Source: Camelus dromedarius (Eukaryota). Taken from it: a stretch of DNA of 64,000 bases. The translations under genes and the position numbers were made by a program. Below, one piece after another: positions 3,302 through 54,830 of the stretch; the first letter of the stretch is position 1, and each line of letters begins with the position of its first letter. The stretch is from NCBI RefSeq assembly GCF_036321535.1, contig NC_087436.1:27468001-27532000 (forward strand), given 5' to 3'. Below the pieces are notes generated by a model. The model did no database searches. It saw only the letters and a list, made by a program, of their open reading frames with translations, and was not told where the DNA came from.

Positions 3302-5245
3302 CTATGGAAGAAGAGTACACATATTAAATTGTTATCAGAAATTTTATATTTTATACCTGAATCCTAAACCTATCTTCTTATTTATCCTTTTCTTTATATT
3401 ACCAAAGGAAGATCCTCTAGCCATCTTCCTTTAATGAAGTAAAAATTATTATCTTTAACTTTAGGCCTTTCTCCTAAAGCTGTAGTCATTTAAACTCATC
3501 CTCTTTAAAGGAGGTCTTCATGATAAAACATTTCACATATTCAAACGTGTAATTGTGTTAAGAGAAATTTCAACTACTGTTGGAACAAATTTTTTTTAAA
3601 AAAGTTTCTGTTAAGCTGTTAGAATTATGCTAATATACTCTTTCTATGGTAGATTTAATTTAATTTGCTTATCAATCATTACATACAAAGAAAAATGTAC
3701 CTTCAAGTCCTGGACATCTTTATTTTCTTTAGTAATCATCATAAATTGGGTTATAGGTTAAAAATACAGGGTCAAATAAAAAGGAGCCTGCCAGTTGATC
3801 TTTCACATTCTTCTCCATCTTTATATTGTTTTACGTTCCTTTTTCAGAAATGGGTAGGTAGTGAACTCAAATGGAACAAACAGAAACAACTCTAGGGGAG
3901 AAAGAGTGGGGAGCTGAAGAAGGGGAGCCCATCCATCCTGCAAGCACTGCTCCAGGTCATCAAGCTGCCATAGCACCTTTGTCTGTCCTGATCCTTAAGT
4001 CTGATGAATTGCCCTCAAATGAGGCACCTATTTAAACCAAGTAAAAAGGATTTTCTTATTAGTAGCTAAAGGCAACAGGTATACTTTATAACCCACTCCA
4101 CTGTCAGTGCAGTGATTTTGAAATTCTTTGAGGTTTTGTAAGCCTTCTGCATTATACATTAGTATTTGTGCAACAGAAGACAATTTAAAGATCTCTTTGA
4201 GCACAGAATTTTAAGTTCAGCCACTCTGAAACACTGCAGGGAGTCTAGAGAAGAAAGGCAAAAGAGAAATGTGCAAATTTCAGATAGACATAACTTTTTA
4301 AAATAAGCAAAATATACATGTTATACAATATTTTTAAGTCTGTAAAGCACTTTCTCAGTTCATTGTACAACAACTTTATAAAGTAAAGACTTGGGTCATG
4401 ACATTTAATATTTATATTTGATTATTGATCATCCACACTGGGAAACTAAGTGAACCCGATTCAAATACTTATGTCTCTATTTCAAAGAGCAAATGTGTAT
4501 CAGACTTTTATAAAAGACCTCTACCCGGAAGTATTATATAGGATCTCTATAGTGAGTGAAGACACCTTTGCATAGTGTTTTGCAATTATTGAAATGTTTT
4601 TTTCTCAACAAATTAGGTAAATTTTAAAATGCTATTAGTGACATGGTTTCTTAGGGTTTTGCACATGTTAGATTATTTTGTTTCCTCATCAAAAACAATG
4701 ACTTCTTTACTGAAATTAACATTTAACTCTTGTTAGCTTACAGAGAGAATGACAAACTCTCAGGTTATCTAATTACTGAAGAAAAAGGGAGTAAGTTAGA
4801 CATGAGATCTTTGAAGTAGAGAGAGACGGTCTCATAAAATCACCAATTCTAGGATTACTTTACAGATGATTATAATTATCATTTGTGGAATTATAAAGGC
4901 ATTTCTCTGTATAGCTAATGTTTACTTTCAAGTCTGCCAATATTTTTCAAAGAAAAATCCATGGAGTTATATAATAACCATCATTTTGGTGGTATAAATT
5001 TAGCAGTTCAATTTTATTCAATTTAAGTTTTCCAGTGTGTCTAGCTCAGCTCTATTTTAATAAACCTCAAAAAGTCATTGGAACAAGAAGAAAATTAAGA
5101 AAATAAAATAGATGACAAAAAATTACTAACAGTTTACATATTACATATTCAACCATGTTTCTGCTAAGATAATGATATATAAAAATCTTCAGGTATTCAT
5201 TTACATGGCTAATGATAGTGACCACAAACATTCTCATCTCACTTT

Positions 5246-5416
5246 AAGACATTTAAGAAAATAATCATCATGATTAAATTTAAATTATTAAATTTTGTAA
5301 GAAAATTTGAATCTCTAACTTATTAAATGAGATTCCAATATTTGAGTTATTATCTAGAAAATATGTAATAACATGAAACAACACTTTAAAATTGACATAA
5401 ATAAGAAAGCAATTTC
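5246..5416 (+). repeat. Left copy of ~170-bp direct repeat flanking the L1 block (putative long target-site duplication)
   Basis: Aligns by eye to 15292-15460; 59/69 identities over 5249-5317 and 31/33 near the end; begins at TTT/AAGA. Confidence 0.85.
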
Positions 5417-6261
5417 AGTTAAAGTCACAGAGAGCCACCATCCCCTCCATAGGAATGAGAGTTCTGATCCCCATGTCAGGCTCCCCAGCCCAGGATTCTG
5501 GCATTGGGAGGAGACCCCAGGATATCTGGTTTTGAAAGCCAGTGGGGCTTAACTCCAGGAGCCCCATGGGGCTAGGGGAAACAGAGATTTCATTCTCTTG
5601 GGAAGTGTACACAAAATCTTGCATGCACCAGATCCAAGGGCAAAGGCAGTGATTTCATAGGAACCTGCCTGCTGGTTTTAAAAGGCCTCTTGGGGAGGTG
5701 GGGGACAGCTGTGGCTCACCCAGGGAACATAAAAGCTGGTGGTGGAGATTCTGGGAGTGTTCATCTGTGAGGTGAGCTTCCTGGAGGCTGACACCTTGAT
5801 TAGATCATTAAACACCAAAACCTAGCCCCACCCAACAGCCTGTAGGCTTAACGGTTGGGAAGCCTCAAGCCAAATAACATATTGGGTGGGAACACAGCCC
5901 CACTCATCAGCAGACTTCCTGAGAAACAGATATCTCTAAACATGGCCCAACCCACCAGAGGTCCAGGACCAAGCTCCACCTAGCAGTGGGCAGGCACCAA
6001 TTCCTCCTGCCAGGAAACCTGCATAAGCCTCTAGTCCTGCCTCATATGCCAGGGGGCATATACCAGAAATAAGAAAACAGCAATCCCAAAACCTGTGGAA
6101 GGAATCCACAAAGGGATTGGGACCAGCTGGACCCTCGCCCTTGGGTGACAAGAGAGGAGTGTTCAGCTGGGTCACATAGGATGTCTCCTACAGAGGGCCA
6201 CTTCTCCAAGGCTGAGAAAGTAACTAACCTACCTAAAAATACAAATAGAAAGATAGACAAT

Positions 6262-7126
6262 ATGATGTGGAAAAGGAATATCTTTGAGGCCAAGGCACAA
6301 GATAAAATCCTAGAAGAAGAAATAAGTGATGAGGAAATAGGCAATTTATCTGAGAAACAGTTTAAAGTAATGATTACCAAGATGTTCAGAGAACTCAAGG
6401 AGTATAGATGCACAGAGTGAAGTTTTTAGCAAAAAGTTGGAATATATAAAGTTAAATAAAATTATTGAGATGAATAACATGCTAGAAGGAACCAAGAATA
6501 GACTAAATTAGGCAGAAGAATGGATCAGTGAGCTGGGAGACAAATTAGTGGAAATCGCTATTGCAGAACAGAAGAAAAGAAAAAAGAATGAAAAGAAATG
6601 AGGATAGTTTAAGAGAGCTCTGGGACAACATTAAGCACACTAATATTCACATTATGGGGTCCCAGAAAGAGGAGAGAGAATAAGAGCCTGAGAACATTTT
6701 TGAAGAGATAATAAGCCAAAAACTTCCCTAATTTAGGAAACAGTCACCTAAGTCCAGGAAGTGCAGAGAGTTCTACACAGGATGAACCCAAAAAGGAACA
6801 CACCAAGGCACACAGTAATCAAACTGACAAAAATAAGGGTAAGGAGAAAATATTAAAATTGCCAAAAAAAAAGCAACAAATAATATACAAGGGAACTCCC
6901 ATAAATTTATCAGCTGATTTTTCAGTAGAAACTACAGGCCATAAAGGAGTGACACTATATATTTAAAGTGATGAAAAGGAAAGACTTACAACCAAGAATA
7001 CTCTATCCAGCAAGGCTCTCATTCAGAATTGATGGAAAAATCAAAAGCTTCACAGATAGATAAAAGCTAAGAGAATTCATCACCACCAAACCAGCTTTAC
7101 AGCAAATGTTAAAAGAAATTTTCTAG
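6262..7126 (+). pseudogene. L1 ORF1 remnant (frameshifted, stops)
   Basis: EIGNLSEKQFKVMITKMFREL in the ORF track; downstream DNA matches the ORF1 C-terminal region (ttatcagctgatttttcagtagaaac, ccaagaatactctatccagcaaggct). Confidence 0.85.
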
Positions 7127-7206
7127 TCATCAAAACACAAGAAAATAGAGCAAAAAGAATAGGGAAAAAAAGGAACTACAAAAACAAACCCAAAACTATC
7201 AACAAA

Positions 7207-10200
7207 ATGGCAATAAAAACATACATATTGATAATTGCCTTAAATGTAAATAGATTAAATGCTCCAAACAAAAGATACAGACTGGCTAAATGGATACAAA
7301 AACAAGACCCATATATATTCTGTCTACAAGAGACCCACTTCAGAGCTAGACACACATACAGGCTGAAATTAAGGGGATGGAAAAAGATATTCCATGCAAA
7401 CATAAACCAAAAGAAAGCTGAAGTACCAATACTTATATCAGACAAAATAGGCTTTAAAATAAAAACTGTTACAAAAGACAAAGAAGGACACTACATAATG
7501 CTTAAGGGATCAATCCAAGAAGAGGATATAACAATTGTAAATATTTATGTACTCAACATTGGAACACTTCCATGTATAAGGCAATTGTTAACAGACATAA
7601 AAGAAGAAATCGACAAAAACACAGTAATGATGGGGGACCTTAACACCCCACTTACATTAATGGACAAATCATCCAGACAGAAAATCAGTAAGGAAATACA
7701 GGCCCTAAATGACACATTAGACCAGATGGACTTAAGGATATCTATAGAGGATTCCATCCAAAAACAATAGAATACACATTCTTCTCAAGTTCATAAGGAA
7801 CATTCTCCAGAACTGACCACATGCCAGTCCACAAAGCTAGACTCAGTAAATTTAAGAAAATTGAAATTGTACCAAGCATCTTTTCTGACACAACACTATA
7901 AGGTTAGAAATCAACTACAAAGAAAAAACTGTTAAAAAAAAAAATGATCTTGGTGGAAATGGTTTTAGTTTATCACCACTGAGTGTGATGTTAGCCATGG
8001 ATTTGTCATACATGGCAAAACAATATGCTACTGAACAACCAACAGGTCAGTGAAGAAATCTAAGAGGAAATCAAAAAATACTTTGAGACAAATGAAAACA
8101 AAAACAATGATCCAAAACCTCTGGGACACAGGAAAAGCAGTTCTCAGAGGGAAGTTTATAGTAATACAAGCCCACCTCAGGAAACAAGCAAAATCTCAAA
8201 TAACCAACCTAACCTTAGACCTAAATCAGCTAGAGAAAGAACAACAAAACCCAAAGTTAGAAGAAAATAAATCAAAGATTAGAGCAAAAATAAATGAAAC
8301 AGAGGCTAAAAAAGCAATAGAAAATTTCAATGAAACTAAAAGCTGGTTCTTTGAGAAGAAAAACAAAATTGATAAACCTTTAGTAAGACTCATCAAGATA
8401 AAAGTAGATGCCTCAAATTAAAAAAAAAAAATCACAAATGAAAAAGGAGAAGTTATGACCAACACCACAGAAATACAAGGGATAAGAGGCTACTATGAGC
8501 AACTACATGCCAACAAAAAGGACACATAGAAGAAATGGACAATTTCTTAGAAGGGTACAGTTTGCCAAGACTGAGCCAGCAAAAAAACACAAAATATGAA
8601 TAGACCAATTATCAGTAATAAAAATTGAATCAGTAATTAAAAAACATCCAATGAACAAAAGTCCAGGACTAGATGGCTTCACAGAGGAATTCTACCAAAG
8701 GTAGAGTTAACACCTATCTTTCTCACACCATTTCAAAAAATTACAGAGGAAGGAATGCTTCCAAACTCATTCTGTCAGGCCATAATCATCCTGATACCAA
8801 AACCAGACAAAGATACCACCAAAAAAATGACAGGCCAATATCACTTATGAATATAGATGCAAAAATCGTCAACAAAATACCAGCAAATTGACTCCAACAG
8901 TGCATTAAAAGAATCATACATCATGATTGAGTGGAATTTATCCCAGGGATGCAGGGATTTTTCAATATCTGCAAGTCAATCAATGTGATACACCACATTA
9001 ACAAACTGAAGAATAAAAATGATACGATCATCTCAGTAGATGCAGAAAAGCTTTTGATAAAAGTCAAAATCCACTGATGATAAACAAAACTCCAGAGAGT
9101 GGGCATACAGGAGCATACCTCAACATAATAAAGGCCATGTATGACAAACCTACAGCTAACATCACACTCAATGGTGACAAGCTAAAACCATTTCCACCAA
9201 GATCAGGAACAAGACAAGGATGCCCACTCTCACTTTTATTCAGCATAGTTTTGGGAGTCCTAGCTGCAGCAATCATGGAGGAAGAGAAAAGAAAAAGAAG
9301 TCCAAATTGGAAAAGTATTAAAAACTGTCACTCTGCAGATGACATGACACTGTACATAGAAGATCCTAAACACACTACCAGAAAACTACTAGAGCTGATC
9401 AATGAATTCAGTAAAGTTACAGGATACAAAATTAATCCATACACTAACAATGAAATATCAGAAAAAGAAATTGAGGAAACAATCCCATTTACCATCACAG
9501 CAAAAAGAATAAAATATCTAGGAATAAACCTACCTAGGGAGGAAAAAGACCTGTACTCCAAAAACTATTAAGACATTGATGAAAGAAACTGAAGATAACA
9601 CTAACAGATGAAAAGATTTACCATGTTTTTGGAGTGGAAAAATGAATATTCTTAAAATGGCCATATTGCCCAAGGCAATCTACTGATTCAATGTAATCCT
9701 TATCAAATTACCAATGGCATTTCTCAAAGAATTGAAACAAAAAATGTTAAAATTTGTATGGAAACACAGAAGAACTTGAATAGCCAAAACAATCTTGAGA
9801 AAGAAGAATGCAGCTGAAGCAATCATGCTCCCTGAATTCAGACTATCCTACAAAGCTATAGTAATCAAAACAGTATGGTACAGGCACAAAAATAGACACA
9901 TAGCTCAATGGAACAATATAGAAAGCCCCAAAATAAACCCACACACTTATGGTCATTTAATCTATGACAAAGGAGGTAAGAATATATAATAGAGAAAAGA
10001 GTCTCTTCAATAAGTGGTGCTGGAGAATTGGACAGCTACACATAAAAGAATAAAACTAGAACATTCTAAAACACCATATACAAAAGTAAACTCAAAACAG
10101 ATAAAAGACATAAATAAATGTAATACCAGATACTACAAAAGGTCTAAAAGAAAACACAGGCAAAAACACTCCTTGACATAAATTGCAGCAATATTTTTTT

Positions 10201-11030
10201 TTTGATCTGTCTCCTAGAGTAATGAAAATAAAAGCAAAAAAATAAGTAAATGGGACCTAATTAAACTTAAAGGCTTTTGCACAGCAAAGGAAACCATGTA
10301 TGAAATGAAAAAACAACCTACGGAATGAGGAAAGATATTTGCAAATAATGAGAATGACGAGGGATTAATTTCCAAAATATACAAATAGCTAATGCAGCTT
10401 ATCCAAAACAAAAAACCAAACAACTCAATCAAAATATTGGAGAAATATCTACGTAGGTCTTCTGCCCAAGAAGACATACAGCTTGGCAACAGGCACATGA
10501 AAAGATGCTCATTATCTCTAAGTATCAGAGAAATGCAAATCAAAACTACAATGAGGTATCACCCTAACACCAGTCAGAATGGCCATCATTAAAAAGTCTA
10601 CAAAGGAGAAATGGTGGAGAGGTATAGAGAAAAGGTAACCCTCCTATACTGTTGGTGAGAGTGTAAAATGGTGCAGCCGCCCTGGAGAGTAGTATGGAGA
10701 CTCCTTAAAAAACTAAAAATAGGATTAACATATGATCCAGCAATCCCACCCCTGGGCATTTATCTGGAGAAAACTCTAACTTGAAAAGACATATGCACCC
10801 CAATATTCGTAAAGCACTATTTATAACAGCCAAGAAAATAGAGCGACCTAAATATCTACTGACATATGAATGGATAAAGAAGATGTGGTGTATATATATA
10901 TACATATGTACACACACACACCCTCCTATAAATATACACAACATTACTTGGCCATAAAAAATGAAATAATATCATTTGCAGCAACATATATGGACCTAGA
11001 GATTATCATATTAGGTAAAGTAAATCAGAG
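7207..11030 (+). pseudogene. L1 ORF2 remnant (endonuclease, reverse transcriptase, C-terminal domain), multiply disrupted
   Basis: ORF track pieces 7207-7770, 8050-8421, 9077-9571, 9795-9989 are recognisable L1 ORF2 segments. Confidence 0.95.
7945..8016 (-). repeat. 72-bp inverted copy of L1 RT segment 9134-9205
   Basis: Reverse complement matches 9134-9205 at 65/72 positions, ungapped. Confidence 0.95.
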
Positions 11031-11380
11031 AGACAAATATTATATGATATCACTTATATGGAATCTAAAAAAATGATATAAATGAACTGATTTACAAACC
11101 AGAAATGGACTTACACAGAAAACGAAGTATACTTAACAAAGGGCAAAGGGATGTGTGTTGGGGGGAAATTAGGAGTTTGGGATTAACATATGCACACTTC
11201 TATATGTAAAATAGATAAATGATAAAGACCTACTGTATAGCACAAGGAACTATGTTCAGTATCTTGTAATAACCTATAATGGAAATGAATCTGTAAAAGA
11301 ATATATATGTATATGTATAAATGAATCATGCTGTACACTTGAGACTAACATTGTAAATCAAATATACTTCAAAAAATAAA

Positions 11381-14300
11381 AGGAACAGAATGGCTGATTG
11401 GATAATAAAACAAGAGCCTACAATATGCTGCCTATAAGAGACCCACTTTAGGGCAAAGGGCACACATAGGTTGAACAGGAGGGGATGGAAAGATATTTCA
11501 TGCAAATGGAAGTGACAAGAAAGCAGTGGTAGCAATACTCATATCAAACAAAACAGATTTTTTTAAAAAGGCCAGAAAGATAAAGACAGACAACATATAA
11601 TGATAAAAGGATCAATACAAGAAGTTATTATACTTGTTAACATACATGCACCCAATGTAGGAGCACTAAGATACATAAAACAAATACTACAAGACATAAA
11701 GGGAGAAATTGATGGAAATACAGTAATGGTAGGAGGTTTTAACACCCCACTAACATCAATTGACAGATCTTACAGACAGCAAATCAATAAGACAACAGAG
11801 ATCTTAAATTACACAATACAATAGTTAGGCTTAATTGATATTTTCAGGACTTTACATTAAGAAAAAAAACAGAATATACATTCTTTTCAGGTGCACATGG
11901 AACATTCTCTAGCCTAGACTATATACTCAGACACAGAACAATCCTTAACAAATATAAAAGGATAGAAATATTTCAAGGATCTTTTCTGACACAAAGGAAT
12001 GAAACCAGAAATCAACCACAAAAAGAGAAAGGAGAAAAATGATTGGAGTCTAAACAACCTGCTACTAAAAAAAAAAATCAATTTGTCAACAATAAAATCA
12101 AACAGGAAATTAAATACCTTGAGGCAAGTGACAATGGAAACACAAAATCTACGGGATGCAGCAAAAGCAATCCTAAGAAGGAAGTTCATAGCGATAGAGG
12201 CCTTCTTCAAAAAACAACAATCTCAAATAACCAATGTATCCTACACCCAAAAAAATTAGAAACAGAAGTACAAACAATAGCTAAAGTCAGCAGAAGGAAA
12301 GAAATAAAGATCAAGGAGGAAATAAATAAAATAGAGATTAAAAACATAAGGAAAAAAAAAAAAAAAACCACCAACACATTTGATTAGTCTCACCAAGAAG
12401 ACGACAGGACCCAAATAAACAAAATAAGAACTGAAAGAGAAGAAATTACAACCAATTCCACAGAAATTAAAAAAAAAATAAGAATACTATGAACAATTGT
12501 ATGGCAACAAATTGGGTCACCTAGAAGAAATGGACAGGTTTCTAAAAACATACAGTACACCAAAACTGAATCAAGAAAAAGTAGGTAATTTGAACAGACC
12601 ATCACTAGAAGTGAAATAGAATCTGCAATAAAAAACTTCCCTACAAACAGAAGTTTATGACCAAATGGCTTTGCTAGGGAACTCTACCAAACATGCAAAG
12701 AACAACTTAAACTGATCCTTCTCAAACTCTTCCAAAAGTTTGAAGAGGAGGGCATTCTCCCAAAGTCATTCTTTGATGCCACTATCACCCTGATACCAAA
12801 ACCAGACAAGGACACTACCAAAAAATACAATTAGATACCAGTATCACTGATGAACATATATGCAAAAATTATGAACAAAATATTAGCAAAACAAATCCAA
12901 TAACACATACAAAGATTCTACACTATCATGAAGTTGGATTCATCCCAGGGTCACAAGGATGGTTCAACATATAGAAATAAATCAATGTGATACACCTCAT
13001 CAACAAAAGAAAGGACAACAACCACATGATCCTCTCAATAGGTGCAGAAAAAGCATTTGATAAAATCCAACATCCTTTCATGGTAAAGAGTCGTACCAAA
13101 GTGGGCACAGAGGGAGCATATCTCAACATAAGAAAATCTATCTATGACAAACCCACAAACAATACAAAACTCAATGATGAAGTGTTCAAAGCTTTCCCAG
13201 TAAAATCTGGAACAAAACAAGGATGCCTGCTTTCACCACTTCTATTCAGTAAAGTATTAGAAATCCTAGCCAATAGCAATCAGACAAAAAGTAATAAAAG
13301 GGGTCCAAAATGGAATAAAAATTTTCACTATATGCAGATGACAAGATACTATATATAGAAAACCCTAAAGACTACAAAAACACTAGTAGAGCTAATAAAC
13401 AAATACAGCAAGGTAGCAGGATACAAAATTAACATACAGATATCAGTTGCATTTCTTTATGGTAACAATGAAATATCAGAAAAGGAAAGTGAAAAACAAT
13501 CTCTTTAAGAAAAAAAAAAAAACAAAAAACAAAACCCTTAGGAATAAACCTGACCAAGGAGGTGAAATACTTATATGCTGAGAGCTGCAAAACATTGATA
13601 AAGGAAATTAAAGATGATTTAAAGAAATGGAAAGATACCCCATGCTCTTTGATTGGAAGAATTAATATTATTAAAATGGCCATACTACCCACAGAAATCT
13701 AGAGATTTAATGCAATCTCTTTCAAATTACCCAGAATATTTTTCACAAAACTAGATCAAATACTCCTAAAATTTATACAAATCACAAAAGACCCAGAATT
13801 GCCAGAGCAATACTGAAGAAAAAGAACAAAAGCTCTAGGAATAACCCTCCCAGACTTCAGAGAATACTACAGAGCTACAGCAATCGAAACAGCATGGTAT
13901 TGGCACAAAAAACAGACATACAGATCAATGAAACAGACTAGAGAGCCCAGAAATAAACCCACACGCTTATGGTCAATTAATCTGTAACAAAGGAGGCAAG
14001 AATATACAATGGAGGAAAGACAGTCTCTTCAATAAGTGGTGCTCAGAAAACTGGACAGTTGCCTGTAAAAGACTGAAATTAGAACATTCTCTAACACCAT
14101 ATACAAAAATAAACTCAAAATGGATTAAAGACTTAAATGTAAGACCAGATACCATAAAACTCCTAGAGGAAAATATAGGCAGAACACTTCTGGACACAAA
14201 TCAGTTTTGAACTAGCTCCTGGAGTAATGGAAATAAAAGCAAAAAAATAAACAAATGGAACCTAATTAAACTTAAAAGCTTTTGCATAGCTAAGCTTACC

Positions 14301-15060
14301 ATCAACAAAATGAAAAGACAACCTACAGAATGGGAGAAAATATTAGCATAGGATGTGACCGACAAGGGACTAATTTCCAAAATATACAAACAGCTCATAC
14401 ACCTTAATATCAGAAAAACAAGCAACCTAATCAAAAAATGGGCAGAAGACCTAAATAGACATCTCTCCAAAGAAGACAGATGGCCAACAAGCAGATGAAA
14501 AGAGGCTCAACATCACTAATTGTTAGAGAAATGCAAATCAAAACTACAGTGAGGCATCACCTCACACCAGCCAGAATAGCCATCATTAAAAAGTCTACAA
14601 ATGATAAATGCTGGAGAGGGTGTGGAGAAAAAGGAACCCTCTTACACTGTTAGTGGGCATGTAAATTGGTACAGCCACTATGGAGGTTCCTTAGAAAAAG
14701 GAAAACCAGACTTACCATATGATCCAGCAATCCCACTCCTGGGCATATATACCCAGAGAAAAATATAATTCAAAAAGACACATGCACCCCAATGTTCACA
14801 GCAGCATTATTTACTATAGCCAAGACATGGAAACAACCCAAATGCCCATCAACAGATGATTGGATAAAGAAGATGAGATATATATACACTGGAATACTAC
14901 TCAACCATAAGAAAGAATAAAGTAATGCCATCTGCAGCAACATGGATGGACCTGGAGATCATCATTCTAGGTGAAGTAAGCCAGAAAAAGAAAGAAAAAT
15001 GCCAAATAATATCACTTATATGTAGAATCCTAAAAAAAAAAAAGATACAAATGAACTACT
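11381..15060 (+). mobile_element. Second LINE-1, 5'-truncated in the EN domain and lacking its 3' terminus; different subfamily from the first
   Basis: Restarts at the ORF2 N-terminus (tggctgattggataataaaacaaga...gagacccacttt), runs through RT and into the 3'UTR, stops at gatacaaatgaacta. Confidence 0.95.
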
Positions 15061-15291
15061 TATTATTTATAACTTAGATGACTGATTTTTAAAACATGTG
15101 TAAGCACATTTGACTGTCCTTTATAATTGGATTACTTCATTCTGTTGATTCTTATTTTGTGTTTGGCTTTATTCCTTTGATAACTATGTAAGTTTACTAA
15201 AGCTCTGAACTGTTCTTAGAAACGAACAGTACATATACGTATATTTAAAAATTAAAAATAAAATAAAAATCTTCCCTGGATCTGGGGGAAA
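15061..15291 (+). other. Non-L1 tail with AATAAA and short A tract (putative 3' transduction)
   Basis: No L1 similarity seen; AATAAA at 15257-15262 and 15262-15267, A tract from 15289, then the right repeat copy. Confidence 0.6.
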
Positions 15292-15460
15292 AAAACATTT
15301 AAGAAAATAAGCATAATGATTAAATTTACATTTTCAAATGTTTTACGAAAATTTCAACCTCTATTCAACTTACTAAATATTAACTCAAAAATATTGAAAT
15401 CTTATCTAGAAAACATATAACATGAAAGAACACTTTAAAACTGACATAAACTGAAATTTC
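15292..15460 (+). repeat. Right copy of ~170-bp direct repeat
   Basis: acatttaagaaaataagcataatgattaaattt...taacatgaaagaacactttaaaactgacataaa matches 5249-5401. Confidence 0.85.
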
Positions 15461-16159
15461 TTCCTTATTTGTATCATCACCACTAGAAAATGCAACTTTT
15501 TCTGTTTTAAAATAGTATTTTTAAATAGTAGGGGAGTGAGTATGGGTTACAGAAAAAGAATAGGCTATTTGACAGTTATTTTAATTAAAGCCAAATGATG
15601 AAATGGATATTTTAATACTACTAACATGTCAGTTAATAACATTTTAAATTCCTAGATATGTAGACATGAGAACAAGTATTTCATAATACTTTTCCGAAAC
15701 AGTTTTTTTCATACTTACATGATATATAATGAAAAGAAATAAAAGAACTACACAGAATTTTAGAGACTTATTTTTCTTCCAAAATTATTTGGTGATTGAA
15801 ATCTCTTAATATTGGGATAGCTTAGTTACATTAAATTACTAATTCAATAATTTTGCATTGTTTGTCTAAACCTTCTCTGAAGTTAAATTTTTAAAGGAAT
15901 TTTAAAGACAAATAGAAAAATGCATAGATGTAGATAAATTGATTTGTAAAAGATGGCTAAATCAACCACAATTTATAAATTTAATCGACTGTATCTCCAG
16001 GTCACTCTCATGTTTGCTTGACCTCATCACTGTTCTGCCTCCAGGATCACAACTTTCTCATCATCCATTGTCTTGTTTTAACTCTAGTTAGAGAGCTAAG
16101 AGTAGATGGTAAAGCTGGAGATGGCAGTTATGAACCACAAGAGTTGTTTAAAAGTAGAA

Positions 16160-33800: not shown

Positions 33801-34741
33801 AACATCAGATCAGTGAACTTGAAGACACAGCAAAAGAAAGTATTCAAAATGAAAACACCATGGGGAAAAATGTCCTAAATGTTAATAAAGCCTCAGTGAC
33901 GTAAGGTCAATAGCAACTGTCTAACATAAGTGAAATTGGAGACTTTGAAGGCCAGAAATAGGGAAATTTTATATATATAAAATAATATATATATGATATG
34001 TAGCATATATAAATATATTCATATAAATAAATTATATATTATATATAAAATATATATTTAAATATACATTTTTAATGATGGACTACATGTTTCTAAATTT
34101 GATGAAAACCCAAACTTCCTAAGATGGTCAGCAAATCTTAAGTAATGTAAAAAGAAAATCAAATCAAGTTATAATACTAATCAAATTACAGTAAAACCAC
34201 AGAAAAGAAAAAAATCTTAGAAAAAAAGATTAAATACCAGGAAACAAAGACTAATATGACCAAAGTCCTCTTGTATGAATGTAAGACACCAGCTCCCTAC
34301 TCCACTGAAAAAAAAATCTCTATGGTGTTGGGGAAGGAGAAAGGGGCAATTCTCCAATTTAAAATTATACAGCCAGCAAAAATATTTTGCACAAAATAAA
34401 TCAAAATAAATATCATTTCAAACAAAATCAAAAATAAAACATCTAAAATATTTATCACCATTTTGCTATCACCATGGTACTATGAGGAATCAGCACCTTA
34501 CACCGCAATGAAGAGTAACAGAATTAATAAACATGTGAAGAAATATAATTTTTCCTTCTAAATATTTCATCAAAAAATTATTTTTGCTTTGAAGAATCAA
34601 TTTTTATGTATGACAATGTATTATATCATTTAAAACATATTCTGAGATAAAATTACTAAACAACAGTACAAGGGACAAAAGGGAAGGAAAGAATACTTGC
34701 ATAAGGAAGGTATACTGTTACGTTAAAGATAAATGTTGCAG

Positions 34742-35217: not shown

Positions 35218-35315
35218 TAGGCAATCTCATTATTTGCAGTAACTGTGTTCTACAAAGCTACCACCAATACTGAATTAATGAACAATGAACCATTGCTCCT
35301 AAGGAAATTTTAATA

Positions 35316-35349
<34 letters not shown>

Positions 35350-35786: not shown

Positions 35787-36384
35787 TATTAATACTTAGA
35801 AAGGGGGACATATATAATAATAAAAGGAGTAATTTATTAAAAAGATGGCAATCCTAAGTGCATGCACCTGATAAAAATTCAAATCACATAAAATAAAAAG
35901 ACAGAACCAATGGGAGAAATAGACAAATCCATTATTAGGAATGATTAAGTACTCCTCTCTCAGTAATTTACAGATTAATTAAATCAAAATAAAGAGATAA
36001 ACATCTTGAAGAAACCTACCGTTCAATTTGACCTTATCTCTTATCTACCCAATAAAAAACTTTATGTTTCTATGGTTATCTTAACTACTTTTTTGATAAT
36101 AATCAATGGAATTTAGTTTTCCTGGAATTGAAAGGCAGTGGAAACCCAATGAAAACTGGACAATTATGTTTATTGGAAGGTGATGTTTGTTGTTTGTAGA
36201 CTCAGAAATACCTTCCTTAAAGTCATTACTCTGGATATTGATATGGACCTCAGACACAGAAATGGATACATAGAATGCAACAGCCATGCAGAACTATTTT
36301 CAGGGTAAATAACTTACAGAATTACATTCTAAATTGAAGTACTCATCTATAAAGGTACTTTATAGATGAAGTACTCATCTATAA

Positions 36385-37514
36385 AGGTCTGATTTGTTTA
36401 TTTTTGTTTTTACTTCTCCTAAGCTTTTGCACAGCAAAGGAAACCATAAGCAAAACAAAAAGACAATCCACAGAGTGGGAGGAAATATTTGCAAATGATG
36501 TGACTGACAAGGGCTTAATTTCTAGAATATATAAACAGCTCATACAACTTAACAAAAAAACAAACAACGCAATCCAAAAATGAGCAAAAGACCTAAGTAA
36601 ATAATGCTCCAAAGAAGACATACAAATGGCCAATAGGCACATCGAAAAATGCTCAGTAGTACGAATTATCAGAGAAATACAAATCAAAGCTACAATGAGG
36701 TATCACCTCACACCAGTCAGAATGGCCATCATTCAGAAGTTCACAAATGATAAATGCTGGACAGAGTGTGGAGAAAAGGGAACCCTCCTACACTGTTGGT
36801 GGGAATGTAGTTTGGTGCAGCCACTATGGAAAACAGTATGGAGATTCCTCAAAAAAACAAAAATAGAGTTACCATATGATCCAGCAATCCCACTCCTGGG
36901 CATATATCCGGAGGGAACTCTTAATTTGAAAAGATACACGCACCCCAGCGCTCACAGCAGCACTAAATACAATAGCCAAGACATGGAAACAACCTAAATG
37001 TCCAACAGATGACTGGATAAAATACCACAACTTTTTATACAATGGTATACTACTCAGCCATAAAAACGAATAAAATAATGCCATTTGCAGCAACATGGAT
37101 GGACTTAGAGATTGTCATTCTAAGTGAAGTAAGCCAGAAAGAGACAGAAAAATACCACAGTATATCACTTATATGTAGAATCTAAAAAAAGAAAAAAAGA
37201 TACTAATGAACTCATCTACAAAACAGAAATGGACTTGCAGACATAGTAAACAATCTTATAGTTACTGGGAGAAAGGGGATGGGGAAGGGATAAATTTAGG
37301 AGTTAGAAATTTGCAAATGTTAGCCACTATATATAAAAATAGATTAAAAAATTTCTTCTGTATAGCACAGGAACTATATTCAATATCCTGTAATAACCTT
37401 TAATGAAAAAGAATATGAAACTGAATATATGTATGTATATGCATGACTGGGACATTGTACGGTACACTGGAAATTGACACATTATAACTGACTATACTTC
37501 AATTAAAAAAAAAA
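36385..37514 (+). mobile_element. 5'-truncated L1 with short 5' inversion (camelid-type 3'UTR)
   Basis: 36421-37514 is the ORF2 C-terminus plus 3'UTR ending tgcatgactgggacattg...actgactatacttcaattaaaaaaaaaa; 36385-36420 is the adjacent L1 segment inverted. Confidence 0.93.
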
Positions 37515-37884
37515 GTAGGTTATTTTTCTTGAGATTAAAAAGAGAAAGGAACCATAAAAGGTCTGCTTTTATTTTCCTGGTACACTAACAAAACAAATCC
37601 ATTTTTCCTATGGTGTTGTCTGCCTATTTATCTCAACAGAACACATTAAAAATATTCAGATGAAAAGAAGTGGGAAATAGGAAGAGTAAAGCAATAACTA
37701 GGGAGAAAGAAACAAGGAGGAGCTAATTTTTATGTACATTTTATCCACATTACTGAATTCTACTTTGATAGCTATTCTAATTGTATTTTCTTGTATGTCT
37801 GCTAATTTACCCTACTTGTTACAATCCCAGTACTACCATAATTCTTTCTCTTGTGTGATGTGAAATAGTTCTTACAAAAAACTT

Positions 37885-47579: not shown

Positions 47580-50500
47580 ATCCAAAATTATCTTAAGACA
47601 AACAAAAAATAAAACAGCATACCAAAACTTTTGCAATGCAACAAAAAATGTTCTAAGAGGGATGTTTAATAATAATAAATGCCTATGTTAAGAAAAAAGA
47701 AAAATCTCAAATATAACTTTATACCTTTCAAAATTAGAAAAAGGAAAACAAACTAAATCTTTACCTAGATTTACCAAGAAAAAAAACAGAGATGACCCAA
47801 ATGAATAAAATTATAAATGAAAGAGATATTACAACTGATACCAAAGAAATACAAAAGATCTAAGAGACTACTATGAAAAATTATATGCCAACAAATTGGG
47901 CAACTAGAGATGGATAAATTCCTAGAAATATATAATCCACGAACACCAAAACATAAAGAAACAGAAAGTCTGAACAGACCAATAACGAGTAAGGAGAATG
48001 AACCAGTAATCAAAAACCTCTCAACAGAGAAAAGCCCAGGAACAAATGGCTTCACAAGTGAATCCTACCAGACATTTAAAAAAGAATTAATGCCAATCCT
48101 TCTCAAATTCTTCTAAAATACAGAAGAGGATGGAACAATTCCACACTCATTTTACAATGTCATCATTACCTTGATATCAAAGATATACAAAGATACAAGA
48201 AATGAAAACTGCAGGCCAATATCCCCGATGAATATAGATGTTAATTCTCAACAAAGTACTAGCAAACCAAATTCAGCATCATACATCAAATTGAACAGCA
48301 TATTATTATCATACATGTTAACAGTATCATACATCAAATTGAACATATTATTGTAATTCAACTTTATACCATGATCAAGTGGGATTTATCTCTAGGATGC
48401 AAGGATGGTTCAATATATGCAAATCAATAAATGTGATACACCATTAACAGAATGAAAAATAAGAATCACATGATCATCTCAACAGATACAGAAAAAACAT
48501 TTGACAAAATTTAACTTATGATAAAAACTCTCAACAAAGAAACATACCTCAACATAAGAAAGGCCATATATGATTAGCCCACAGCTAACATAATACTCAA
48601 CTGTGAAAACTGAAAGCTTCCCCTCTAAGATTACAAATAAGACAAACAACATGCCCACTGTCACCATTCTTCACCAACACAGTACTGGATGTCCTAGCCA
48701 GAGAAACCAGGCAAGAACAAGAAATAAAAGACATCCAAATCAGAAAGAAAGAAGTAAAAGTGTCTCTGTTTATGGGTTACATCATCTTATTTAGAGAAAA
48801 TACTACTATATTTATAGAAAGTACTCCATCAACAACAAAACAAAATAAACCCAAACAGAATTAACCAACGTCAGTAAAGTTTCAGGATACAAAATCAACG
48901 TACAAAAATCAGTTGGGTTTCTTTACATTAAAAACAAAGTACCTGAAAAAGAAATACTAAGAGAAGTAAGCCACAAAGAGAAAGAAATATACCATATAAT
49001 ATCACTTATATGTGGAATCTGAAAAAAAAAGGCAAATTAACTTATTTACAAAACAGAAACAGACTCACAGACATAGAAAACAAACTCATAGTTATGGGGG
49101 AAAAGGGGGAGGGAAGAGATAAATTGGAAGTTTGAGATTTGCAGATACTAACTAATATATATAAAATAGATAGACAAGTTCATACTGTATAGCACAAGGA
49201 ACTACATTCTCTATCTTAGTAACTTATGGTGAAAAAGAATATGAAAACAAATATATGTATGTTCATATATGACTGAAGCATTACGCTGTACACCAGAAAT
49301 TGACACAACATTGTAATCTAACTATACTTCAATAAAAATATATATAAAAAGAAATAAACAACTATTTACAAGGGCATCGAAACAATACTTAGGAAAAAAT
49401 TGAACCAAGAAAGTGAAAGATCTATATACTGAAATCTATGAGACATTGATAAAAGAAATTAATAGAGATGCAAATAAATGGGAAGATACTCATGTTCATG
49501 GATCAGAATAGTTAATGTTGTTAAAATGTCCAGATTCCCCAAAACCATCTGTAGCTTCAGAACAATTCCTATCAAAATTCTAACAGTGTTTTTGTACAGA
49601 AATTTTTAAAATTCCTACAATTAGGATGGAATCACAGAAGAGCATGAAGAACCAAGGCAATCCTGAGAAAGAATAACAAAGCTGGAGGCATCACACTTCC
49701 TGGTTCCAAACTATATTACAAAGATACAGCAATCAAGATGGTATGATACTGGCATAAAACTGACATACAGACCAATGGAACAGAATTGAGAGCTCTGCTG
49801 ATGCATAATGATCAAGTAATATCTGACAAAAGATCCAAGAATACTCAATTGGGTAAGAATAGTCTATTCAATAAATGGTGTTCAGGAAACTGGATATTCA
49901 CAGGCAAAGGAATACAATTTAAACCCCATCTTACACGACTTACTCACAGAAGTTAATTTCAGATGGATTAGGGACTTAATACTAAGACCTGAAACAGTAC
50001 AGCTCCTAAGGAAGAAAAACAAAAATGCTCCTTGACATTGGTCTTGGCAATGATTTTTTAGATATGACACCAAAAGCACAAAACAACAAAAGCGAAAATT
50101 AAAAGTGGAACTGCATCAGACTAAAAAGCTTCTGCACAGCAAAATAAACCTTCAACAAAATGAAAAGGCAATCTACAGAATATGAGAAAACATTTACAAA
50201 TCATTTGTCTGATAATGGGTTAATATCCAAAATATAAGAAACTCATACAATTTATTAGCAAACCTGCCCCCCATATAATCCAATTAAAAAAATGGGCAAA
50301 ATACCGGAATAGACATTTTCCCAAAGAAACAACAATCATATAAAAAGGTATTCACTAATCATCAGGGAAATGCAAATCAAAATCAGATATGAGATATAAT
50401 CTCATGTTTTTTAGAATGGCTATTATGAAAAAAGACAAGAGATAAAAGCTGGTGAGAATGTGTCAAAAGGGGACCCTAGTACACATATCCTCTATGGAAA

Positions 50501-51248: not shown

Positions 51249-52086
51249 GATTCTTGGATCAAGCAGATAATGGGACAGAGCAGACAGCTTCCACACAAAT
51301 GATAAAACAATCTTCTAAGTCGACCTGCTTATTTCCTTTTGATTTACTACTTATTATAGTTATTATTTGGTACCTCTTTGTGATGACTTTGCCTATGACA
51401 GTTGTTCTCACAAATCTTCACCATATTATTCTTCATCTCATCTGGCTTTCTTCTATCACCTAAGGAAAAGCAAAACTCTCTTCAGTTTTTCTCAGAATAT
51501 AATTTATGCTCTAAATCTTATTGATGCCCAAATTTGTCACCTTCCATGGGATTCTGATGACACAAACTTAATAGCTGTTCCTTTCACTGCTCAGAAAGTA
51601 TATTTTCTTCAACAGGTTCCTTGTGATATATATATAAATTGTCCTATCATTATTCACCCCAACCTTCAATCTTATAAAAATTGGTTTTCACCTCCACTCC
51701 TAGTCAAGAAAATACTTCCCCTGAAATAATATTAGAATTGTCAACAGAAAACAGCTCACCAGAGGAAATAAATACTGGGGCTACCCTTGCTGCTGTATCG
51801 TTTGTTCTCTTCAGAGACTTTCTAGCCTGATTTGTAGATGCTATTTATATCCACTCGGAAAGTCAGCCTGCATCCTGATACCAGTAATTGGCTTGCTCTC
51901 TTAGTAATAAACAACACTTGTACCCCTAACTCTTTCTGTGCAGATACCACATCTGATGTGAAAACCAGGCATACCTTGCCTACTGAATACATAGCCATAC
52001 TGTATATTTGGGCAATTATGAGAGCCTTTCATACATATAAAACCTATGTAATATGTTTTCCCAAAATACTCGAAGTGAGACGACTA

Positions 52087-52268
52087 CAGTCGGACCTCCT
52101 ATCCACAGGTTCCACACCTGCAGTTGGTGGAATCCGCAGATGCAGAACACTCCGATATGGAGGCCTGACTGTACTACACCATTTTATATAAGGGACATTA
52201 GTATCCGTGGATTTTAGCATTGGTGGGGGTCCTGGCACCAGTCTCCCACGGATACCTAGGGACAACTG
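52087..52268. mobile_element. TcMar-Tigger MITE (MER2-like) with TA TSD
   Basis: ta|cagtcggacctcc...ccattttatataagggac...ggatacctagggacaactg|ta. Confidence 0.85.
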
Positions 52269-53195
52269 TATCACCTGTTCAGGAGAGCTCACAGTTCACT
52301 CTTCATAAGCTACATTTTCAATGATATAGTAATATAACTGGAAAAGGCCATCCAAATTTTGTCTCTGATCCTAGGAAAAATCATTATGGTACCTCCGTTT
52401 TGGTGATCCCCAAAAAAAAAAAATTAGTTTACACTGATTAACGGGTTGTCATAAACTAGCTCATACATATCCTTTGATTCCTCTTCAAGGAAATGTGTGT
52501 GCTATATAATATTTTTACTGCACTTATGTAAATATGTCATTTCTCAAAAACAGAAGAAAACTGACTCTATGAAAGACTCAGATGGAAGTGTGGAGATGTT
52601 TCCATGATTGGGATCTGTAGTCTACGTCCTGCCTTCATAGCCCCTTACACAGACAAATAAGCTTTCCTTCTTTTAATTGCATGTAATGCGGCTGGTCAAC
52701 GCATTCTGTTCAAAGTAGCAGTAATAATGGGAGGCTGTGGTCATATCAGATAATTCCACAACTTAACGCGCTACAGAAGGAATAGAGAAGACAAATTCTT
52801 GTCCAACTAAAGACAACAACCTTCTGATCAACAAAATCTTGAAAACTGTATGGATCTGGACTAAACAGATAAATATTTTTTAGTCTGACTTTACTTGCCC
52901 TTGGCCAAAGGAGTGACTGAGAAAGCAAGAACAAAGCACCTTCAAGGATCCAGCGGGCAGTAGGAAGAAAACAGCTGGTATGCAGTGTTTCATATTGGAA
53001 ATGAGAAATTTCATAGAATATCAACGTCAGATGAGGAATCTTCATTACTGTGATGGAACAAGATCAAAAGGAGACCATTCCAAAGTCACAGCAAAAATGT
53101 CTGAAAATAGCCAGATTTAAGGGTACAAGGACACTAAAAACAAAATACCATGTAATTTCCTTCTACTTGCATTCCTTCCACTGACGATAAATTCA

Positions 53196-53197
<2 letters not shown>

Positions 53198-53242
<45 letters not shown>
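53198..53242 (+). repeat. (CA)n microsatellite, ~22 units
   Basis: Uninterrupted CA run. Confidence 0.98.
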
Positions 53243-53245
<3 letters not shown>

Positions 53246-54533
53246 TCCCTCCTGGGAAAATAAATACATAGCATTACTCACACTTTATAAACTATATGGT
53301 ATATACCACAATGAGGCGGCCTCAGACCTTGGAAGACATCATACTGTGTCCCAAGGGTTCACGGCAGAAGCCAACGTCACTACTCAGTATGGCAGGGCCT
53401 GCGTCTCCTTGGAAGGCTAGAGAGTTGCTCCTGGGCATGTGCAGTTCATTGCCTCATTCTGGCCTTGGTAAGTCCCCTCCTCCCCCCCCCCACCCAGCCA
53501 GGCCCCTGGAGAGAGGCGCCATAGCACTGTGACTCCAAGCTGGGAGAAGGGGTCGAGGAGGATGAGGGTTTGGCTCGATATGAGGCAACAGGCTGGATTC
53601 CTTAGGGTGAATCTGAGATGAAGGGCCTCGAGCACCTGGGTACCCAGGTGGTTCTCATCCCAGGACTACCCTGTCAGCCCCTACAGAGCTCTTGAGAAAT
53701 GAGAGATCTGGCTTCCTCTTGGGAGAGTAGTGGCAGTAGCCGCAGAACTTCATTGGATTTGCTAACCTCTTGAGCTACCCCGGACACTCAGGGCGTTCCA
53801 GTCCATCCTCCTCTGTCCCTCCCTCAAGACCCGCACTTACTACCCTCACACCCCTGAAGCCACAAACTGCACCTTGTGGGATCCAAGGTGTTTGCCTTCC
53901 TGGAAAACACCACACTCTGCCCACCCCAGACCAGGCCTGGCCCTGGTCCACAGGTGTCTCCAAAAAAAACGTGGTCGCCCCACAACCCCATTAGCTCACA
54001 TCCTGTAACTCCCTTTACAGAAATATCTCATGATGCTTTCAATCTGTGTTTCATTGCTACAGCAACATAATAAACAACTGTTATTGACTACAGTTGTGTT
54101 CTTATTGATCTTCAGCCCTGGGCTTCTTCAAGTCGGTAACTAACTGAGGATGAGGTCTCTGAGAACGTAACAGATGGATGTCCTGGTAAAGTGGTGCTAC
54201 ACATACAGGAGGAAAAAAGATTCAAGTCTGGTCAGCAGAAAACTAACACTTCATACCCATGTCCCAGACCTAAGCCAGTTTACCTAGAAGGATACACTCA
54301 CATAGAGCTGGGTCTCTGAAATAGAGGCCTAGATGGAACCACAACTGCTTATATTACATTTTCCTAGACCAACTGTGGCTATTGACCTGGGTGTCTGTTC
54401 AATGGGGGGGGGGGGGAACTATTGGGTTACACCCCACAGGCCTGCAAGACTTATAATTGCCCAGCTTGGAGACCAAAGAAAGAGCCCGGAGACAGCGAGA
54501 GACATCAGTGGTTTACTGGATAAGGGGCCTTAC

Positions 54534-54604
54534 ATGTCCAGAACAGAAGGACTCGGAGCGACTCCCCACTGTGTATCCCCGGCAGCTCCTTAGCAGTCTT
54601 CCCT
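54534..54604 (-). other. Candidate first exon
   Basis: Begins ~29 nt downstream of TATAAA; ends TTCTGGACAT|gtaagg. Confidence 0.45.
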
Positions 54605-54830
54605 GCTGCAGAAGAGGGAGGCTAGCATTTATAGGGGGAGCTGATGTCAGAACGTCCCATCAGTTACCAGGGAAACCAGCGGCTGGGGCAGGGGGCAAGC
54701 ATGTAGGCACTTACTGATTAAGCCCTATAATTAAGAGAATTGGCTAGTGGTGTGAGTGAAGCAGGGCCTAGTTGGGGAGGGAATGAACAGAGAGCGAGGG
54801 AACAGCCATCTTGACTGGCCTGACCTCATG
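54605..54830 (-). promoter_or_regulatory. Candidate TATA-box promoter
   Basis: TATAAAT at 54633-54627 (minus), TGACATCA at 54649-54642, homeodomain-like GATTAA/TAATTA at 54716-54733, YY1-like CAAGATGGC at 54813-54805, in a locally GC- and CpG-richer region with no repeat I recognise. Confidence 0.45.

Follow-up and report, generated by a model that had tools for sequence, protein, structure and literature searches.

The window, i.e., the whole stretch of 64,000 nucleotides analyzed here (Camelus dromedarius contig NC_087436.1, positions 27,468,001–27,532,000), contains two copies of an AT-rich direct repeat, R1 and R2, that bracket a block of L1 sequence. The block consists of a near-complete L1, L1A (~5417–11381), followed head to tail by a 5′-truncated L1, L1B (~11374–15269). 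All features are listed in Table 1.

Table 1. Features of the L1 block and its flanking direct repeat (window coordinates)
Feature	Position	Strand	Remarks
L1 endonuclease-like site TTT/AAGA (bottom strand TCTT/A)	5243..5249	+	putative first nick 5245/5246
R1, left repeat copy, firm part	5246..5401	+	~19% GC; BLAST and local alignment
Second site, perfect TT/AAAA	5386..5391	+	14 bp inside the firm end of R1
Junction bases, no firm assignment	5402..5416	+	repeat end, L1 5′UTR start, or templated from the repeat start
L1A 5′UTR-like segment	5417..6261	+	GC climbs from ~20% to ~55%; upstream of ORF1; putative 5′UTR
L1A ORF1	6262..7130	+	broken by stops and frameshifts; translation; tblastn of 6576–7090 to ORF1-bearing proteins P0004 and P0159
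L1A ORF2 (codons 2–1272)	7207..11058	+	14 stops, 25 frameshifts; Pfam EN, RVT_1
72-bp inverted copy of L1A RT stretch 9134–9205	7945..8016	-	inserted in L1A ORF2
L1A complete 3′UTR and short A tail	11059..11381	+	A tail 11371–11381
L1B ORF2, ~codon 23 to end	11374..15020	+	5′-truncated; 13 stops, 22 frameshifts
L1B 3′ region	15021..15246	+	15021–15057 similar to the window's other L1 3′UTRs; 15058–15232 not
A-rich tail	15247..15269	+	AATAAA at 15257 and 15262; copies of the repeat family end in A; loose ends behind 15223
19-nt spacer between two A tracts	15270..15288	+	near baseline depth; putative short 3′ transduction
7-A run, putative remnant poly(A)	15289..15295	+	last four A's overlap the R2 start
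R2, right repeat copy, firm part	15292..15450	+	weak extension to 15460; BLAST, local alignment and depth

Local alignment of R1 and R2 gave 129 identical bases in 153 ungapped columns with four gap openings, i.e., a divergence of 15.7% (24/153; K2P 0.18 ± 0.04). By BLAST, the copies are 79.6% identical over 162 columns (E 1e-31), in agreement with the roughly 80% estimated in a preliminary description of this DNA. Both methods also bore out its starting points of the repeat, and the measured separation of ~9.9 kb is the one it reported. The length of ~170 bp that it assigned to the repeat (5246–5416 and 15292–15460) stood only in part. The last 15 and 10 bases are alignable only via a 5-base gap and a 6-base match, and such a match was equalled by 21% of 1,248 25-mers from the flanks, leaving 156 and 159 bp as the firm repeat. 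With a length of 156–171 bp, the repeat lies outside the 5–30 bp (peak at 14–16 bp) of canonical L1 target-site duplications (TSDs) given in PMC5223499 and PMC2912911.

It is very improbable that the pair arose by chance or through misassembly, or that it belongs to a dispersed family. The alignment scored 148, whereas 300 shuffles reached 41 at most. No third copy was found within the window, where all further matches had E 7e-4 or worse. Depth was compared in contig sets of 4 of the 24 sequencing runs, a comparison that sees matches of at least 80% likeness and is blind to weaker ones, and that skipped 15239–15273 as repeat. Of the 24 runs, 20 derive from one organism, A, and two are metagenome RNA runs; a named second species is not among them. 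At 80% likeness, the R1/R2 sequence occurred at single-copy depth in both genome contig sets (runs X1 and X3). The single extra contig on R2 in each of these runs bears R1's letters at 15329 and 15333, and depth stayed at baseline across 15373–16100, where R1's contig was the sole extra one among those listed. In the same runs, the neighboring L1-type tail reached several hundred to more than 10,000 times the baseline. At this likeness, the dispersed family named as a refuting result in the preliminary description was not observed, and the repeat behaves as the unique sequence it had been taken for. In favor of a wider family, a run guessed to be RNA (X17) contains a short extra contig of depth ~52 at ~15303–15330 that is without R1's letter. 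A 16% difference between copies is not what collapse or doubling in the assembly would produce. The right junction (15167–16100) was spanned without differences by a single contig per run in two runs that stem from separate studies, and an assembly error at this junction is excluded.

The block had been described as one L1, which proved incorrect. BLAST revealed internal homology between 8056–11088 and 12095–15057 (70.9%) and between 7266–7921 and 11374–12022 (70.7%). Instead of one 5′UTR-ORF1-ORF2-3′UTR unit, the block contains two ORF2s that are 71% identical and fall in separate clades, with FastTree supports of 0.999 and 0.987 (whole-ORF2 tree, 23 of 23 rows; tree of codons 25–700, 21 of 23). 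The ORF2 of L1A clusters with those of whale, cattle and musk deer and with two pig ORF2s; that of L1B clusters with the 36.4-kb copy in the window, a pig ORF2 and one further ORF2. Given the relatives of L1A, whale, cattle and pig may carry the same insertion. Judged by these sequences, L1A and L1B are both old and dead, and they belong to different L1 lineages. The 72-bp inverted segment in L1A is identical to L1A at 65 of 72 positions and to L1B at 47 of 69. The 3′UTR of L1A is of the same type as a copy at 59.7 kb (p 0.147), and this difference of 14.7% is close to the 15.7% of the repeat pair. An exchange between L1A and L1B by gene conversion, or a mosaic of the two, was rejected, as divergence ranged from 0.16 to 0.37 over 13 blocks and a near-identical tract was absent. 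A YY1-like word was not found near the 5′ end of L1A.

In run X1, 15058–15197 had a depth of 19,929–438,357 against a baseline of 30.5. The segment 15058–15232 is a high-copy repeat 3′ end, which probably represents L1B's own 3′UTR type. That 15058–15246 is an mRNA end or unique DNA carried along by transduction was rejected on account of the high copy number. A search of metagenome, prokaryote and viral collections gave no full copy of this 3′ end, the outcome to be expected for DNA of a mammal. No sign of function is apparent in the sequence of the locus: none of the 109 non-L1 frames of at least 62 codons matched Pfam, and the 64-kb window gave no Rfam match.

L1B is most likely nested in the tail of L1A. 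Its start lies within this tail at TTC/AAAAAA, and at the end of L1B's own tail the letters of the L1A tail reappear. The candidate duplication for such an insertion consists of A-rich letters alone and thus proves nothing. An L1 nested in another L1, with an 11-bp duplication, is also present at 49 kb in the window. With two lineages inside the block, a minimum of two RNAs must have been involved, and probably two separate events. Alternatively, both L1s could have entered the same long TSD in one reverse-transcription event: the reverse transcriptase would have copied the L1B RNA from its 3′ end, halted within the endonuclease region and then switched to an L1A RNA at the 3′ end of the latter. 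The form expected of such a chimera, an upstream RNA's complete 3′ end joined to a 5′-truncated L1 within one outer duplication, is the one seen here; the first ~8 bases of L1B overlap L1A's tail, and the two elements are equally decayed. Form and equal age fit nesting as well. The available text of PMC4476161 describes this structure for U6/L1 and tripartite chimeras, which likewise join one RNA's full 3′ end to a 5′-truncated L1 under a single duplication; it also allows for a later element having inserted into the 3′ end of an earlier one. In that text, however, template switching is mostly confined to U6 and U6atac, and the 5′ partner is a small RNA, whereas here it is a 6-kb L1. A template switch would moreover require a 9.9-kb cDNA from two RNAs and an abnormal second nick, all in one event. 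Nesting explains the locus equally and remains compatible with all data, and the template switch is regarded as improbable.

Decay was assessed at clock sites, i.e., non-degenerate sites of invariant ORF2 residues. Such sites were changed at 45 of 459 positions in L1A (9.8%) and at 54 of 468 in L1B (11.5%; p 0.40), and at the 377 shared sites, 35 were changed in L1A alone and 37 in L1B alone. The expectation that L1B would be the younger element was not borne out. Each repeat copy has decayed by 7.8% (interval 5.4–11.1%), and the values for L1A, L1B and the repeat copies cannot be told apart. The 24 differences in 153 columns compare with 16.1% predicted from the decay of L1A (p ~1.0) and 21.9% predicted from that of L1B (p 0.06). 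The dating check proposed in the preliminary description, copy divergence against L1 decay, thus agrees with copies as old as the insert, as expected for a TSD, within wide intervals. These clocks are coarse, and gaps of many millions of years would escape them.

The slightly greater decay of L1B could point to the reverse order, in which L1B came first, with the long TSD and the 19-nt transduction, and L1A inserted later at L1B's 5′ junction. L1B's tail and its AATAAA do run straight into the spacer and the A-run. Yet, a duplication of L1A's own was not found (best score 13 for 5399–5412 against 11374–11385), 48% of the flank 25-mers fit the junction bases as well as the start of L1B does, and L1A would have had to land almost exactly at the junction, no more than a few bases away. 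Since the repeat divergence is also closer to the decay of L1A than to that of L1B, this order is quite improbable.

Summed over all orders of events, R1 and R2 probably represent a long TSD; the particular version with L1A as the outer element and L1B in its A tail has about an even chance. For a long TSD speaks that the repeat starts exactly on an endonuclease-type site. The left copy begins at TTT/AAGA, as previously noted; sites of this class occupy 0.6–1.6% of flank positions, and TCTT/a is among the L1 cleavage sites tabulated in the accessible part of PMC5223499. The end of R1 lies 0–15 bp from the 5′ segment of L1A, and R2 adjoins exactly an A-run situated 21 nt past an AATAAA. The terminal A tract said to abut the right copy corresponds to this 7-A run, but the long A-rich tract is separated from R2 by the 19-nt spacer. 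Against a long TSD, the poly(A) remnant comprises just seven bases, four of them within the repeat. At up to five mismatches, the spacer has no further copy in the window, and its position between two A tracts is the form of the 18-bp transduction in PMC5932605.

Under the long-TSD reading, the L1 endonuclease would have nicked the target at TTT/AAGA, and reverse transcription would have begun on a polyadenylated RNA whose end is the 19-nt spacer. The second strand would have been opened ~156–171 bp downstream rather than ~15, so that this stretch was duplicated on both sides. The outer element would be L1A with a short 3′ transduction. L1B, of a second lineage active in the same period, would have entered L1A's A tail either at this locus shortly afterwards or, shortly beforehand, at the donor locus, both of which fit the sequence, and the whole locus would have decayed neutrally ever since. 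The preliminary description proposed one target-primed event with distant second-strand cleavage. The long TSD remains the best reading, but a single event with one L1 is unsupported, given the two lineages.

The perfect TT/AAAA inside R1 counts against a long TSD; its occurrence so near the end of R1 has a chance of ~6% (0.0058 per base over 11 positions). Of the two readings concerned, only recombination of two nearby insertions explains it. L1A would have entered at TT/AAAA, close to where the repeat ends on the right, and produced a 14-bp duplication of normal length, and L1B would have been primed at TTT/AAGA, 142 bp leftward, on the other allele. Joining of the L1A tail to the L1B 5′ end, during L1B integration or later, would then have left the intervening DNA on both sides. 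Such a pseudo-duplication accounts for both endonuclease-type sites, for the firm repeat end at 5401 and for the two L1s inside. According to the portion of PMC7058536 available, tandem duplications arise in tumors when L1 cDNA bridges to a broken site of another chromatid, and the recombination route is discussed for HERV-K in sections of PMC5488345. However, two insertions 142 bp apart would have had to co-segregate, and a non-homologous join exactly at the L1A tail is needed, whereas the 3.6 kb of homology would presumably have yielded one hybrid L1. TT/AAAA-type sites are also frequent in 81% AT DNA. This route is rather improbable. A true long TSD and a pseudo-duplication predict an identical empty site, and thus an outgroup empty site would not separate them.

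A further point against the long TSD as stated is that 5402–5413 resembles the repeat start (10 of 12 bases match 5254–5265), a post hoc observation equalled by 2.4% of the 1,248 flank 25-mers. Together with GACAT at 5248 and 5393, this resemblance would fit an earlier ~145-bp tandem duplication bounded by GACAT, after which the L1 would have landed barely within the second copy and made a TSD of the ordinary 15–20 bp. Yet, bases templated at the 5′ junction would yield the same resemblance, and 5′ extra nucleotides occur in 14.6% of 5′-truncated L1s (PMC2912911). The insertion would have had to hit a poor endonuclease site no more than ~10 bp from the joint of the duplication, and the outer start at TTT/AAGA would become a 1–2% coincidence. 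In addition, 2–3 changes in 20 bases are required, and the repeat is, within error, not older than the L1s. A preceding tandem duplication is therefore not a likely origin.

The pair is most likely a TSD of ~10 times the usual length, a kind of duplication that is known, though rare, among the by-products of retrotransposition. In the available text of PMC5223499, L1 TSDs usually measure 5–30 bp; lengths above 100 bp are seen in no more than 10% of HeLa events and in 57–91% of those in NER-deficient lines; Gilbert 2002 and 2005 and Symer 2002 are cited there for large TSDs. These de novo L1s in cultured cells share with the present locus an endonuclease-type site, poly(A) (here a putative remnant), a duplication of >100 bp and the model of a distant second nick. 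They differ in being engineered, somatic and fresh, with TSDs of up to several kb, whereas the present pair is germline, 16% diverged and encloses two L1s. The same second-nick model is applied to ZfL2-2 in DT40, where a duplication of 1228 bp accompanied one wild-type insertion in 25 (PMC2666801, in part), although this is an L2-clade element in a chicken cell line. Excerpts of bioRxiv 10.1101/2024.12.14.628481 deal with small tandem duplications at L1 insertions that are interpreted as large TSDs. As here, host DNA is duplicated on both sides of the L1 in that work and in the tumors of PMC7058536, for which break-induced replication or sister-chromatid bridging is proposed; those duplications are somatic and span 1–10 kb and megabases, in contrast to ~160 bp. 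HERV-K (HML-2) duplications of 111 bp, 250 bp and, putatively, 450 bp (PMC5488345, in part) are germline, similar in size and subject to the same ambiguity between true and pseudo-duplication. Unlike the present locus, HERV-K is an integrase-based LTR element, recent and with known empty alleles. Only ordinary-length duplications appear in the accessible portions of bioRxiv 10.1101/522623 and PMC8934628.

There is a small though not negligible chance that one germline reverse-transcription event delivered 9.9 kb of two L1 lineages, by read-through of an L1A donor bearing L1B or by template switching, with a duplication of ~10 times the usual length. If so, R1 and R2 would date a moment at which both lineages were active in one germline, ~35–60 million years ago under assumed rates, and similar loci may be common yet overlooked. 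Such loci may be missed because TSD surveys limit the searched length (5–30 bp in PMC2912911). A single locus is uninformative on frequency or on the choice of the second nick. Long L1 duplications have so far come mostly from cell lines, repair mutants and tumors, and long-TSD insertions may be short-lived because long repeats recombine, as suggested in part of PMC5223499. The present pair would be an old germline case, in which 160-bp copies 9.9 kb apart survived to 16% divergence. The repeat pair also provides an internal clock independent of any consensus, coarse as it is (±21% standard error).

The direct repeat is 79.6% identical over 162 columns (E 1e-31) in the self-comparison of the window. 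Local alignment of its left copy (R1) and right copy (R2) yields 129 identical positions among 153 ungapped columns, the mismatches comprising 9 transitions and 15 transversions, along with 4 gap openings; the K2P distance is 0.176 ± 0.037, and the score is 148, whereas 300 shuffles averaged 25.6 and peaked at 41. The preliminary description gave the repeat ~170 bp. Its starts at 5246 and 15292 and a length of 156 bp are firm, but the last bases up to 5416 and 15460 are weak: forcing these ends gives 136/163 identities, and the extension, a 5-base gap followed by a 6-base match, is equalled by 21% of 1,248 flank 25-mers. Thus, the firm repeat is 156 bp, with an upper bound of 171 bp. No third copy is present in the window among the matches listed, which are complete for R1 and R2. 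Contigs of four runs were also aligned on 15058–16100, with depth not being equal to copy number. In the genome sequencing runs X1 and X3, depth over R2 is at baseline, save for one extra contig per run (26.5 and 10.6) that carries R1's letters at 15329 and 15333. X17, a presumed RNA run, adds one short contig (depth ~52) near 15303–15330 that lacks R1's letter. The repeat therefore exists in two copies, within the 80% likeness limit of the contig comparison, and is not a dispersed family, the objection that had been foreseen.

The sequence between the copies had been regarded as a single 9.9-kb L1 block. However, two ORF2 stretches within it match each other, 8056–11088 with 12095–15057 (70.9%) and 7266–7921 with 11374–12022 (70.7%), and the block is two L1s: the near-complete upstream L1A and the 5'-truncated downstream L1B. 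Their ORF2s were placed against a profile built from 18 mammalian ORF2 proteins, with frameshifts allowed for in the alignment. In an ORF2 tree (FastTree, 23 rows), L1A clusters with whale, cattle, musk deer, and two pig ORF2s (support 0.999), and L1B with the L1 copy at 36.4 kb, another pig ORF2, and one further ORF2 (support 0.987). These separate groupings indicate that the host is a cetartiodactyl whose genome has two L1 lineages. L1A and L1B differ by 0.33 at third codon positions and by 0.25 and 0.24 at first and second positions, as expected if the source elements already differed. Within L1A, a 72-bp inverted copy of its own RT stretch (9134–9205) sits 1.1 kb upstream, at 7945–8016. 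It is identical to L1A at 65/72 positions and to L1B at 47/69; its 10% divergence suggests an age below that of the outer repeat, and it may be a patch from templated repair or part of a sister copy.

Coordinates of the repeat copies, L1 parts, and microsatellites in the window
Feature	Position	Remark
R1	5246–5401	left copy
R2	15292–15450	right copy
L1A	~5417–11381	near-complete
L1A GC-rich segment	from ~5417	
L1A ORF1	6576–7090	tblastn matches
L1A ORF2	7207–11058	codons 2–1272; frameshift-aware profile alignment
L1A short A tail	11371–11381	follows complete 3'UTR, same type as L1 3' piece at 59.7 kb
L1B	~11374–15269	5'-truncated
L1B ORF2	11378–15020	from codon 23; frameshift-aware profile alignment
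TA, AT, CA microsatellites	33970–34066, 35313–35349, 53194–53242, 58623–58658	

Decay was measured at non-degenerate positions, taking residues that do not vary across the reference set. L1A is changed at 45/459 sites (9.8%, interval 7.4–12.9) and L1B at 54/468 (11.5%, 9.0–14.8); among 377 common sites, 35 are changed in L1A alone and 37 in L1B alone. Frameshifts number 25 and 22, and stops 14 and 13, respectively. The prior expectation that L1B would be the younger was not borne out. The clock does resolve ages, since the 49-kb copy, with 29/137 sites changed, is distinct from L1A (p 0.001). Adjusted to the repeat's 81% AT, the predicted R1/R2 divergence is 16.1% from L1A (p 1.0) and 21.9% from L1B (p 0.06), and the observed value is 15.7%; the comparison of copy divergence with L1 divergence proposed earlier thus agrees with the duplication. 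Within wide error, L1A, L1B, and the repeat share a single age. At assumed rates of 1.5–2.5 per 10^9 sites per year, point estimates are 35–59 million years (full range 21–83).

At the 3' end, the resemblance of L1B to the window's other L1 3'UTRs stops at 15057, an edge spanned by contigs as judged by their position only. Depth over 15058–15197 is 19,929–438,357 in X1 (flank 30.5) and 8,908–144,831 in X3 (flank 12.7), which rules out 15058–15246 as unique DNA. As expected for mammalian DNA, this 3' end has no copies in metagenome, viral, and prokaryote collections. Loose contig ends reveal that copies of the family terminate in A at this point, indicating that the A-rich tract 15247–15269 is a retroelement tail, and we infer that the high-copy tail is L1B's own 3'UTR type. 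Past it lie 19 non-family bases and then seven A's, the last four overlapping R2. Contrary to the preliminary description, the A-rich tract itself does not abut R2; the seven-A run does. Over 15167–16100, one contig of X1 and one of X3, from different studies, show no difference, so the right junction is real. L1B and the 36.4-kb copy (36400–37515) are of one ORF2 type, with equal codon-position differences (0.167, 0.172, 0.186); beyond 15057, their 3'UTRs are unrelated, L1B's type being very high-copy, and a 3'UTR replacement inside one L1 lineage is possible. At 15144–15148, 19–31 contigs per run (X1, X3, and X17) have loose ends in which ~30 bases antisense to the L1 ORF2 end precede the high-copy tail (22/25 match 14766–14790, counted by eye), which may reflect either a subfamily with potentially self-folding RNA or an inverted joint in a non-autonomous element.

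R1 begins at TTT/AAGA, a site class found at 0.6–1.6% of flank positions, and R2 is preceded by an A-run 21 bases past AATAAA. With its 19-nt spacer flanked by A tracts, the junction has the form of an 18-bp transduction reported in PMC5932605. Together, start site, A-run, and spacer look like marks of target-primed reverse transcription, in which the first nick would fall at 5245/5246 and the second ~160 bp away. L1B, which begins at TTC/AAAAAA within L1A's tail, may have nested there, at this site or at the donor; this is the simplest route for the second L1. Since the inner duplication expected is pure A-rich sequence, it is no proof of nesting. The same sequence would result from a template-switch chimera of L1A and L1B RNAs (chimeras are treated in PMC4476161). 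The reverse order would have L1A later added at the 5' joint of L1B, but L1A has no detectable duplication of its own. In the window, an older L1 (47580–50900; ORF2 codons 270–753 and 759–1264; 15–21% decay) is interrupted by a younger L1 3' piece (~48957–49345), nested with an 11-bp duplication, a precedent for L1-in-L1. A 5'-truncated L1 3' piece with L1A's 3'UTR type (59656–60008), used as a control, has an ordinary ~12–18 bp duplication.

A perfect TT/AAAA at 5386–5391 lies 14 bp before the firm repeat end (~6% coincidence), which has the look of an ordinary duplication for L1A alone and keeps alive a pseudo-duplication, i.e., the joining of two insertions 142 bp apart; the outgroup empty site would be identical under both readings. 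In addition, 5402–5413 matches the repeat's start at 10/12 positions (2.4% of flank 25-mers; post hoc), which would suit bases templated at the junction as well as an earlier tandem duplication with GACAT at its bounds. Taken together, the long-duplication readings are probable. The ~160-bp repeat is most likely a germline L1 target-site duplication; it encloses a composite of two L1 lineages, and nothing points to a function.

The repeat locus is a genuine fossil, and its type is rare and already known. L1 duplications are usually 5–30 bp, and those >100 bp account for ≤10% of HeLa events and for most events in NER-deficient lines, as reported in PMC5223499, where loss of such insertions through recombination is suggested. 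A length peak of 14–16 bp was obtained with only 5–30 bp searched (PMC2912911). A 1228-bp duplication occurred in 1/25 insertions (PMC2666801), larger L1-linked duplications are described in tumours and cell models (bioRxiv 10.1101/2024.12.14.628481; PMC7058536), and germline HERV-K duplications of 111 and 250 bp are reported in PMC5488345, where pseudo-duplication is discussed. In a search of mostly titles, with few subscription papers and no supplements, none dealt with this locus or with long L1 duplications that are old and fixed; at this scope, this is weak evidence of absence.

Elsewhere in the window, a ~29-bp short direct repeat at 36330–36390, just upstream of the 36.4-kb L1, is absent from the Tandem Repeats Finder list. 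The stretch 52001–55000, which has no Pfam or Rfam match, reaches 51% GC with a low CpG ratio of 0.22–0.38.
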